Part shown: piece after piece, positions 51,050 through 52,503 of the stretch | Numbering within the stretch: position 1 is the stretch's first letter | How the letters are laid out: every line of letters begins with the position of its first letter | Source: Candidatus Nomurabacteria bacterium | Lineage (GTDB): Bacteria > Patescibacteriota > Minisyncoccia > Phycocordibacterales > UBA918 | Assembly (NCBI GenBank): GCA_020632155.1 | Contig: JACKGE010000001.1 | Location: forward strand, 314,285-378,284 | DNA length: 64,000 nucleotides | Reading direction: 5' to 3' | The notes under the pieces: model-generated | What the model saw: only the letters and a program-made list of their open reading frames with translations | Told to the model about the DNA's origin: nothing | The model's database searches: none | Program-made: the position numbers and the translations under genes

Positions 51050-52503
51050 AATTAGAGTTTGATCCTAGCTCAGGGTGAACGCTGGCGGCGTGGATGAGGC
51101 ATGCAAGTCGAGTGGGTTTAGACCCACGGCAGACGAGGTAGGAACACGTAGGTACGTACCCCAAAGTCACGGATAACCCGGCGAAAGTCGGAATAATACG
51201 TGATGGTCTCGCAAGAGTAAAGATTTATCGCTTTGGGAACGGCCTGCGTTCTATCAGCTTGTTGGTAAGGTAACGGCTTACCAAGGCTACGACGGATAGG
51301 GGAGGTGAGAGCCTGACCCCCACCGATGGAACTGCGACACGGTCCATACTCCTACGGGAGGCCGCAGTCGAGAATCTTCCGCAATGGACGAAAGTCTGAC
51401 GGAGCGACGCCGCGTGGTGGATGAAGTCCCTAGGGACGTAAACACCTTTTATGAGGGAGGAAGTTTATTGACGTTACCTCATGAATAAGGGGCTCCCAAT
51501 TCTGTGCCAGCAGGAGCGGTAATACAGAAGCCCCGAGCATTACCCGGATTCACTGGGCGTAAAGGGTGCGTAGGCGGTTGTATTAGTCAGGTGTTAAATC
51601 TTTGGGCTCAACCCAAAGGCTGCATTTGAAACGGTACAACTAGAGGAAGTGAGAGGTGAACAGAACTCAAGGTGTAGGGGTGAAATCCGTTGATATCGAG
51701 GGGAATACCAAATGCGAAGGCAGTTTACTGGCACTTTCTTGACGCTGAGGCACGAAAGCGTGGGTAGCGAACGGGATTAGATACCCCGGTAGTCCACGCC
51801 CTAAACGCTGTCTGCTGGCTTTTTGGAGTATCGACCCTCCAAGAGGCGAAGGTAACCCGTTAAGCAGACCGCCTGGGTAGTACGAGCGCAAGCTTAAAAC
51901 TCAAAGGAATAGACGGGGCTCGCACAAGCGGTGGATCATGAGGCTTAATTCGTCGCTAAGCGAAAAACCTTACCGAGGCTAGAAACCATACTGCACGCTC
52001 TGGGAAACCAGAGAATCTTTCGAAGGTGTATGGCAGGTGATGCATGGCCGTCGTCAGTTCGTGGCTTGAGCTGTTCCCTTAAGTGGGGAAACGAACGCAA
52101 CCCTCGTTGCCTGTTATATGTGTCAGGCGAGACTGCTCCCTCACGGGAGAGGAAGGTGAGGATGACGCCAGGTCAGCATGTCCCTTGATGCCTCGGGCTG
52201 CACCCACGCTACAATGGGTAGTACAACGGGATACGAAGGGGTAACCCGGAGCAAAATCCTTATAAAACTATCCCCAGTTCGGATTGTGGTCTGCAACTCG
52301 ACCACATGAAGTCGGAATCGCTAGTAATCGTGGATCAGCACGCCACGGTGAATACGTTCCCGAGCCTTGTACTCACCGCCCGTCAAGTCAGGGGAGTCGG
52401 GAGTGCCCGAAGTGCCACCTCGCGTGGTCCTACGGTAAACTCGATAACAAGGACTAAGTCGTAACAAGGCACGGCTAGCGGAAGCTGGTCGTGGATTAAT
52501 TCC
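51050..52503 (+). rRNA. rrs: 16S rRNA (~1.45 kb, no large insertions). 3' tail ...GGATTAATTCC lacks the canonical CCUCC anti-SD
   Basis: AGAGTTTGATCCTAGCTCAG...CCTACGGGAGGCCGCAGTCGAGAATCTTCC...GTGCCAGCAGGAGCGGTAATAC...AAGTCGTAACAAGG... GGAA-loop helix 45 present. Confidence 0.9.

Follow-up and report, generated by a model that had tools for sequence, protein, structure and literature searches.

The question raised by this 64-kb stretch of DNA (the window, taken at its full length) is how an organism starts translation when the 3′ tail of its 16S rRNA lacks the CCUCC core of the anti-Shine-Dalgarno (anti-SD) sequence, and why a minority of its genes carry textbook Shine-Dalgarno (SD) sequences. 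The full-length 16S rRNA gene occupies positions 51047-52506 on the plus strand (Rfam RF00177 SSU_rRNA_bacteria, model positions 1-1533, 1342 bits), is the only 16S gene that Rfam finds within the window, and agrees to within 3 nt per end with the bounds 51050-52503 given in the original prediction. When the last 370 nt are aligned with Infernal, the window tail GGAUUAAUUCCAAU (52493-52506) falls on the model sequence GGAUcACCUCCUUu with the highest posterior symbol, an asterisk, in all columns, and AUUCC at 52499-52503 stands where the CCUCC core belongs. The 16S 3′ end reads GAUUAAUUCCAAU, in place of GAUCACCUCCUUA, and the length of helix 45, just before it, is normal. The alignment bears out exactly the replacement of CCUCC by AUUCC that the original prediction had claimed, and the misalignment of the last ~15 nt that it had named as one possible error is not seen, since the posterior is maximal to the last column.

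We scanned 185,579 species-representative genomes (Genome Taxonomy Database, GTDB) for helix 45 followed by GATNADDTCC, a pattern that demands the absence of both C's at the start of the core. Tails without CCUCC were found at no fewer than 120 loci, each a species-level genome and nearly all from Patescibacteria/Paceibacteria, and a tail present in at least this many species-level genomes is not an error. The proposal that the 16S 3′ end is misassembled, is that of a pseudogene, or is misaligned over its last 15 nt, with a normal anti-SD present after all, gained no support beyond the general point that rRNA ends derived from metagenome-assembled genomes (MAGs) are occasionally chimeric, and we consider it extremely improbable because the Rfam match is full length with high posterior through the final column, many studies have yielded independent assemblies with this very tail, the complete chromosomes CP060229 and CP174360 among them, the sequence 3′ of the gene contains no CCTCC as far as position 53000, and the genes without SD sequences, described below, are independent evidence. 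The lineages among the tail matches listed are Kaiserbacteria, Nomurabacteria, Lloydbacteria, Wolfebacteria, Yonathbacteria, Campbellbacteria, and 'Paceibacteria'. Among these listed matches, 80 of the 120 loci have GATTAATTCC tails and 61 of the 120 have the exact GATTAATTCCAATT of the window, while the tails other than GATTAATTCCAATT are GATCAATTCC, GATCATATCC, or GATTATTTCC, all without CCUCC. Three matches to the tail pattern (L016, L072, and L088) are labeled as Gammaproteobacteria, Limisphaerales, and Thermogutta MAGs, respectively, which lie outside the candidate phyla radiation (CPR); their tails are GATCATATCCTTT, GATTATTTCCTTT, and GATCAATTCCTAT, and these may be real variants or binning or assembly errors.

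The window 16S is 83-94.5% identical to those of tail-sharing Paceibacterota, Kaiserbacteria, and Nomurabacteria MAGs, the best value among the retrieved loci (GTDB species representatives) being 94.5% (L095, Paceibacterota). Proteins identical to open reading frames (ORFs) of the window are named 'Candidatus Kaiserbacteria bacterium' by NCBI (assembly GCA_020428955.1). Based on 16S identity and protein names, we place the source as what appears to be an uncultured Kaiserbacteria-like member of Paceibacteria (Parcubacteria, CPR), and we conclude from the distribution of tails that anti-SD loss is evidently an old, fixed trait of the lineage. The central observation has already been published for this clade (PMC9297842, PMC10783764). 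Tsurumaki et al. (2022, RNA 28:1041; PMC9297842) found CCTCCT in only 48% of Parcubacteria 16S genes, noted that Parcubacteria without the anti-SD overlap the group that lacks uL1, and suggested that SD helices do not form in them. PMC10783764 describes a class of 'SD-scarce organisms lacking CCUCC', with 2-7% SD-bearing mRNAs, that includes Ca. Wolfebacteria and Ca. Campbellbacteria. Thus, the trait that the original prediction described is real, but its status as a published Parcubacteria trait had gone unrecognized. With regard to uL1, the genes rplK-rplA are not found ahead of rplJ-rplL (28249-29356) in the window, although uL1 could be encoded elsewhere.

The altered tail is matched by an absence of SD sequences at the starts of resident genes. 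Genes were called as long non-overlapping ORFs, with the start placed at the earliest ATG in the first 25 codons of the longest ORF, and the counts rest on the 64-kb window and 200 related loci. An SD 4-mer core lies at -18 to -4 in 7% of the 54 window genes, compared with 13% of internal ATGs. The same pipeline applied to 50 kb of Escherichia coli gives 39% for genes and 4% for internal ATGs, which indicates that it detects SD sequences where they are present. For 490 genes beside the 16S in relatives, the SD 4-mer core is found at 14.3%, against 11.8% in controls; for the 346 genes of the window's own tail group, a duplex with the canonical anti-SD of free energy (dG) ≤-11 is found at 1.4%, against a background of 1.3%. 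In an independent replicate (49 loci syntenic with the glyQS region, 284 genes), 5.6% of genes have dG ≤-8, against 5.9% in the control. SD sequences with dG ≤-11 are commoner in the GATCAATTCC tail group (8.6%) than in the GATTAATTCC group (1.4%).

Individual genes agree with these counts. Pfam confirms the identity of glyQS, metG, recA, ftsK, efp, tatD, secD, secF, ftsW, murC, murD, rsmI, rplJ, rplL, ssb, and rpsF, and none of these 16 named housekeeping genes has a purine-rich SD at -5 to -15, with ftsW alone borderline (AGGTGAT before the ATG at 40032, dG -6.7, at a start that is itself uncertain). The statement that native starts are SD-less therefore holds, both for the genes named in the original prediction and for the window as a whole. 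Directly 5′ of the likely rplJ start (ATG 28249), the heptamer CAACCTA is repeated four times in tandem (28209-28248), forming a C/A-rich leader that is not an SD. A new SD matched to the altered tail was also considered and rejected, as we found no excess of duplex stability over controls, no k-mer enrichment, and no positional peak; k-mers that would pair with the tail, such as GGAATT and TTGGAA, occur upstream of starts at 0.3-1 times background.

A different signal is strongly enriched at these starts. The top upstream 6-mers are TATACT (18-fold) and TATAAT (11-fold), and TANNNT starting at -15 to -10 precedes 35% of window genes; the first and second sets of relatives give 34% and 42%, respectively, compared with 8-9% for controls and 2% for genes of E. 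coli. In its extended form, TGnTAnnnT, with the same range of start positions, the box is placed ahead of 35-45% of starts and 8% of controls. The TANNNT peak is sharp at -12. In sequences aligned on the box, there is a T at -5, a T at -3, and a G at -2 relative to it, which is an extended -10 element, and no -35 element appears in the box-aligned upstream sequences. A -10 box locked near the start codon is the classical signature of leaderless mRNAs. A -10 hexamer at -12 to -7 from the A of the ATG would place the transcription start on the start codon, and the position-locked extended -10 thus implies that leaderless initiation is the probable default in this lineage. The original prediction did not recognize this architecture as a positive signal replacing the SD. 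Our full-text literature search returned no paper that joins 'leaderless' with 'Parcubacteria'.

Examples of the box are spread over the window. It is found at the DUF11 surface-protein gene (start 1059, plus strand; TATACT at 1046..1051, that is, at -13 to -8), at ftsK (start 18923, minus strand; TAGTAT at -12), at an IS200 transposase gene (start 26156; TGGTATAGT at -12), and at a GT4 gene (start 42343, minus strand; TACTAT at -14). The same holds for folD (start 43909; TATACT at -14), secD (start 44750; TATAGT at -16), a kinase gene (start 47206; TAGTAT at -13), an AA kinase gene (start 50111, minus strand; TACAAT at -14), a type IV secretion system (T4SS)-type pilin gene (start 53499, minus strand; TAAAAT at -13), and murD (start 54229; TAGTAT at -13). 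Operon-internal genes (e.g., secF, GDSL, recA, and hyp461) lie 2-14 nt after the previous stop in A/U-rich sequence, and we infer that these probably start by coupling or re-initiation.

Against this background, the SD-bearing genes of the window stand out. All of the exceptions named in the original prediction, namely the flp/prepilin-peptidase pair, the three cassette genes, and ORF 56888-57370, are real, and one further candidate had been missed, a GNAT acetyltransferase gene (13038-13424, plus strand; assigned by Pfam) with an SD-like TAGGAG (dG -6.8) and a G+C content at third codon positions (GC3) of 0.59. The flp pilin gene (5073-5201, minus strand; Pfam Flp_Fap, 8e-15) has AAGGAG 8 nt before its ATG, and the gene of an A24/TadV-like prepilin peptidase (4634-5047, minus strand; Pfam Peptidase_A24) has the SD GAGGAGGG, with a dG of -12.3 against the canonical anti-SD. 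The gene order ileS-recO-DUF11-glyQS-metG-tatD is conserved in relatives. The gap between glyQS and metG is 727 nt in the window but only 5-81 nt in five of the closest relatives (L141, L132, L133, L138, and L136), flp and tadV were found in none of 80 related syntenic loci, and other relatives carry different cargo between glyQS and metG. Judged from this synteny, the flp/tadV pair is evidently an insertion between glyQS and metG.

ORF 56888 (56888-57370, plus strand; 160 aa, orphan) has the SD GGGAGGG (dG -11.6) and, upstream, a promoter-like box, TAATATAGT, from which its mRNA would have a leader. The order 16S-pilin-tRNA-Ile-murD-murC-rsmI-DUF4015 is conserved in relatives, in seven of which (L049, L076, L107, L084, L115, L021, and L105) the murC-rsmI distance is 68-202 nt. 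The same site holds other cargo in L116, L058, L071, L068, and others, and it is occupied by an SD-bearing DUF218 gene in L116, L058, and L033. By the same kind of comparison, ORF 56888 appears clearly to be an insertion, here between murC and rsmI.

The cassette consists of gene 1 (36422-36646, plus strand; 74 aa, SD GAGGA, with its own terminator hairpin), gene 2 (36789-37016, plus strand; 75 aa, SD GAGG, with its own terminator), and gene 3 (37323-38228, plus strand; 301 aa, SD AGGGAGAG, with a terminator at about 38253-38275). Genes 1 and 2 are orphans without a Pfam or PHROG match. The description of this cassette as GC rich is well founded for the third gene, in that G+C content is 0.60-0.65 over 37.2-38.26 kb compared with about 0.48 for the genome, and the longest ORF in its frame (37173-38228) has a GC3 of 0.83; the coding sequences of the first two genes reach only about 0.52-0.55. 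No donor was identified for any of these genes: in protein searches, cassette gene 3, tadV, and ORF 56888 each matched nothing but themselves, and PHROGs gave nothing useful. The orphan cassette gene 3 had as its sole match among 5.8 billion proteins an identical fragment, tadV is likewise an orphan, and the only database match of ORF 56888, itself, comes from Ca. Kaiserbacteria.

The clade as a whole provides a test of whether SD sequences mark variable genes. We classed 774 genes in the relatives' loci as shared, if they have a homolog anywhere in the window, or variable, if they have none. An SD with dG ≤-8 is present at 46 of 393 variable genes (11.7%) and at 9 of 381 shared genes (2.4%), an odds ratio of 5.5 (p=1.6e-7). 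The excess is reproduced in both neighbourhood sets, and within the GATTAATTCC tail group the values are 23/192 (12.0%) for variable and 3/154 (1.9%) for shared genes (p=2e-4). SD cores peak at -12 to -10 in variable genes only, with no peak in shared genes. The enriched words are AAGGAG (10.8-fold) and GGAGG (6.3-fold), which fit CCUCCUU, while no enrichment in variable genes is seen for words matching the resident tail (TTGGAA, 0.8-fold; TTGGAA, TGGAA, and GGAAT, 0.3- to 1.3-fold). The SD sequences thus fit the canonical anti-SD and not the resident tail, as expected if these genes came with a donor-type ribosome-binding site. The possibility that SD-bearing starts are due to chance is rejected for the clade by the comparison of shared and variable genes and by the spacing peak, not by the window counts.

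Base composition is a poorer guide to these genes. SD-bearing genes of relatives have a mean GC3 deviation of +0.026, compared with -0.005 (p=0.02), and the absolute deviation gives p=0.16, which is weak; composition alone does not separate SD-bearing genes. An SD is absent from about 88% of variable genes, and the AT-rich islands of the window are SD-free (IS200/SLT/GH25 at 25.7-28.0 kb, a GDSL lipase gene at 7383-8018, and the ORF at 47821-48210), some with leaderless-type boxes. The first of these islands (25681-28027, G+C content 0.35-0.41), which adjoins rplJ, contains an IS200-like transposase gene, an ORF with an SLT domain, and a GH25 lysozyme fragment; with leaderless-type -10 boxes and no SD, it looks mobile or phage derived. 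The original prediction had proposed the SD as an internal discriminator of horizontally acquired genes. What stands is an enrichment (11.7% versus 2.4%) and its agreement with synteny, and what falls is the idea of a clean discriminator, given that about 88% of variable genes are SD-free. The SD is instead a one-sided enrichment marker that detects only imports from SD-using donors, and import is itself something that we infer from variable presence across relatives.

Taken together, these results make it probable, in our judgment, that the anti-SD has been lost in this lineage, that resident genes are SD independent and largely leaderless, and that SD-bearing genes are lineage-specific insertions with a donor's ribosome-binding site. 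The parts of this account that were observed here are the tail and its conservation, the lack of SD sequences, the position-locked -10 element, and, for variable genes, their insertion status and SD enrichment. Resident genes initiate translation without SD/anti-SD pairing. The first genes of transcription units would be expressed from an extended -10 element, TnTGnTAnnnT, whose hexamer starts 12-15 nt before the ATG and would set the transcription start at the AUG or within a few nucleotides of it, and the resulting leaderless mRNAs would be bound directly by ribosomes carrying initiator tRNA. No new SD complementary to the altered tail has evolved. The minority of genes with textbook SDs (AAGGAG/GGAGG at -12 to -8) would have been acquired horizontally, arriving with the ribosome-binding site of an SD-using donor that has not yet been lost and that is presumably a non-functional relic in its present host.

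Several observations weigh against this explanation. The start rule is crude, in that it favors ATG and may misplace some starts, although it still recovers the SD of E. coli. The SD-bearing starts of the window, taken by themselves, do not significantly exceed the number expected by chance; it is their clustering, synteny, and the clade-wide test that give these genes significance. In that test, a gene not shared with the window is a proxy for an accessory gene, and the class takes in spurious ORFs as well as core genes that lie outside the 64 kb. SD-bearing genes also recur across lineages, DUF218 in L116, L058, and L033 and DUF4015 in L037 and L065, a recurrence compatible both with repeated import and with retention by selection. 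The DUF4015 glycosyl-hydrolase orthologs in question (L037:1544-2845, minus strand, and L065:3960-5219, plus strand) have strong canonical SDs (AAGAGGAGGTGA and GGGAGGAGGG, respectively), and both loci belong to the GATCAATTCC tail group; the window ortholog (58398-59744) and those of closer relatives have a -10 box instead of an SD.

In an alternative reading, the anti-SD is weakened rather than lost. The resident UUCC (52500-52503) can form 4 bp with GGAG or GGAA and also pairs with GGGA, and the SD-like sites of accessory genes could then be functional, weak ribosome-binding sites that are kept by selection. Duplexes with the real tail reach -5.7 to -6.0 kcal/mol for flp, tadV, GNAT, and ORF 56888, which are among the strongest of the window, and the precise location of SD cores at canonical spacing and the recurrence of SD-bearing DUF218 and DUF4015 genes in different lineages also count in its favor. 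However, it is AAGGAG and GGAGG that are enriched, while the words that best fit the resident tail show no such enrichment; shared, core genes fall below background in SD cores (2.4% versus about 6%); and the UCC would not be free if it is paired with the downstream GGA. We regard a weakened anti-SD as distinctly unlikely and favor the loss of SD pairing with donor-derived SDs on inserted genes.

The downstream GGA raises the further question of why the replacement tail is so well conserved. Directly 3′ of the modeled end lies UGGA (52507-52510), which could fold back on UCC (52501-52503) as a mini-hairpin, UCC-AAU-UGGA, and the sequence CCAAUUGG is palindromic. Of the 120 loci among the matches listed, 115 have UCC-N3-6-GGA, with 49 distinct continuations, compared with a background of 7% after any TCC, and the majority of the listed loci read UUCCAAUUGGA past the UCC. 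One alternative is therefore that the tail has been repurposed: mature 16S would extend to ...UUCCAAUUGGA, the UCC would pair in cis with GGA, or CCAAUUGG would pair with CUAAUUGG or in trans, and the resulting small helix would replace or occlude the SD-helix site, explaining the conservation of the new sequence. The frequency of UCC-N3-6-GGA with variable loop lengths argues for this, as do the 61 listed loci with GATTAATTCCAATT, nearly all of which continue into GGA, the minimum-free-energy fold of the trailer, in which CCAAUUGG is paired to CUAAUUGG, and the unusual conservation in Parcubacteria of h26, which contacts the SD helix (PMC9297842). On the other side, there is no covariation in the UCC:GGA stem, whose bases are invariant, and RNAalifold on 66 sequences supports no consensus trailer structure, the alignment being too heterogeneous. 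The segment also lies inside a precursor that is bounded by a processing stem at 52642-52675. A UCC...GGA fold-back is found in precursor trailers of Firmicutes as well, and it may be a mere processing signal. We consider a repurposed tail unlikely, if somewhat less so than a weakened anti-SD; conservation past the UCC may reflect maturation signals or a new role of the tail.

The surroundings of the 16S gene bear on its maturation. An inverted-repeat search pairs 50905-50938 in the leader (5′ arm) with 52642-52675 (3′ arm) over 34 nt with 82% complementarity, and this repeat is likely the long-range processing stem of pre-16S. Directly after the 3′ arm is a terminator hairpin (52677-52719), and a second copy of the processing arm (52868-52902) with a terminator (52905-52947) follows downstream; arm and terminator are thus tandemly duplicated (units 52642-52719 and 52868-52947), with 88% identity between the two 34-nt arms. 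The architecture of the 16S trailer is kept clade-wide (window 52507-52675; L002-L121) and consists of the tail, a variable hairpin, a conserved GGTCGAT box (YTAATTGGTCGAT), and a second hairpin. The loop of the first hairpin is often GGTAAC, and the second has a CAATTG loop with compensatory changes seen by eye. Leader (about 50783), tail, and trailer each contain an AAUUGG motif.

Other features of the window are recorded here. The rRNA genes are unlinked: 23S-5S (32291-36164) shares its strand with the 16S gene but lies 15 kb upstream of it. At 3671 nt, the 23S gene is longer than its model of 2925 positions and has a 217-nt insertion near model position ~230, plus others; Rfam reports no intron family in it. 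One tRNA-Ile gene lies 1.3 kb 3′ of the 16S gene (Rfam), and the T4SS-type pilin gene (52969-53499, minus strand) stands between the two, a placement that is conserved in 58 related loci. Between the tRNA-Ile gene and the murD start at 54229, a direct repeat of ~25 nt (TTCGAAAATACTCTTGTGGTG) occurs twice (53960-54045), and downstream of DUF4015 there is a gene for a type IV coupling-protein-like ATPase (59791-61752, plus strand). An alternative genetic code was considered and rejected, as removal of TGA as a stop barely extends the longest ORFs and removal of TAG extends few, as for any stop.

Bacteroidetes mRNAs have leaders, and the leaderless-rich Actinobacteria and Deinococcus-Thermus keep the anti-SD and use SD sequences for their leadered genes. 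These are the known systems outside the clade that most invite comparison. Bacteroidetes such as Flavobacterium johnsoniae resemble the present case in their genome-wide lack of SD sequences and in their A-rich, unstructured start regions, but their CCUCC is intact and, according to work cited in PMC10783764, sequestered by ribosomal proteins, whereas here the sequence itself is mutated. Unlike the leaderless-rich bacteria (GeneMarkS-2 'group C', PMC6028130; Zheng et al. 2011, PMC3160421), the organism has no SD sequences at its leadered resident genes either. The reduced endosymbionts listed in PMC10783764 (Carsonella, Hodgkinia, Nasuia, and others) have lost CCUCC and are SD scarce, as here, but they are isolated cases of extreme genome decay, while Paceibacteria are a species-rich environmental clade with one conserved replacement tail. 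The class of 'SD-abundant' organisms lacking CCUCC (category iii of PMC10783764), in which an altered anti-SD has a co-evolved SD, does not describe this organism, which shows no enrichment of tail complements.

The closest comparison is with Parcubacteria without the anti-SD (PMC9297842), which are the same clade with the same trait. That study reports the absence of the motif and does not deal with the replacement sequence or its conservation, start signals, leaderless promoters, or SD-bearing accessory genes. The SD-scarce class of PMC10783764 likewise combines CCUCC loss with few SD mRNAs, and its Wolfebacteria and Campbellbacteria also appear in our tail scan (L082 and L106); the part of that paper available to us names no Kaiserbacteria-type genomes and gives neither an alternative signal nor an analysis of genes that keep an SD. 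The present analysis adds to the published trait the position-locked extended -10, the absence of a motif complementary to the tail, and the enrichment of SD sequences on variable genes, of which the first is the most useful.

Few bacteria have lost the anti-SD, and the largest natural example known is this clade, as already published. In these genomes, starts will be wrongly assigned by gene finders and by prediction based on ribosome-binding sites unless the model applied is a leaderless one, and the position-locked extended -10 box is a usable signal for both start sites and promoters in uncultured organisms. With its roughly fivefold enrichment on variable genes, the canonical SD can serve as an inexpensive flag, independent of composition, for some of the horizontally acquired genes of CPR bacteria, and SD relics offer a way to ask how quickly a ribosome-binding site decays once it is of no use. 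That the replacement tail is so strongly conserved indicates continued selection of some kind on the 3′ end. A bolder proposal, which we put forward tentatively and think unlikely in its full form, is that Paceibacteria, a species-rich class, abandoned SD pairing and initiate by default on leaderless mRNAs made from extended -10 promoters, that the tail, rather than decaying, became fixed as GAUUAAUUCCAAUUGGA under purifying selection, and that SDs persist only on recent inserts. If this is true, GAUUAAUUCCAAUUGGA might act as a cis fold-back (UCC:GGA) that fills or blocks the SD-helix pocket, or as a maturation signal, and canonical SDs would serve as a built-in timestamp for genes acquired horizontally from donors that use the SD, perhaps the very hosts on which these episymbionts live.

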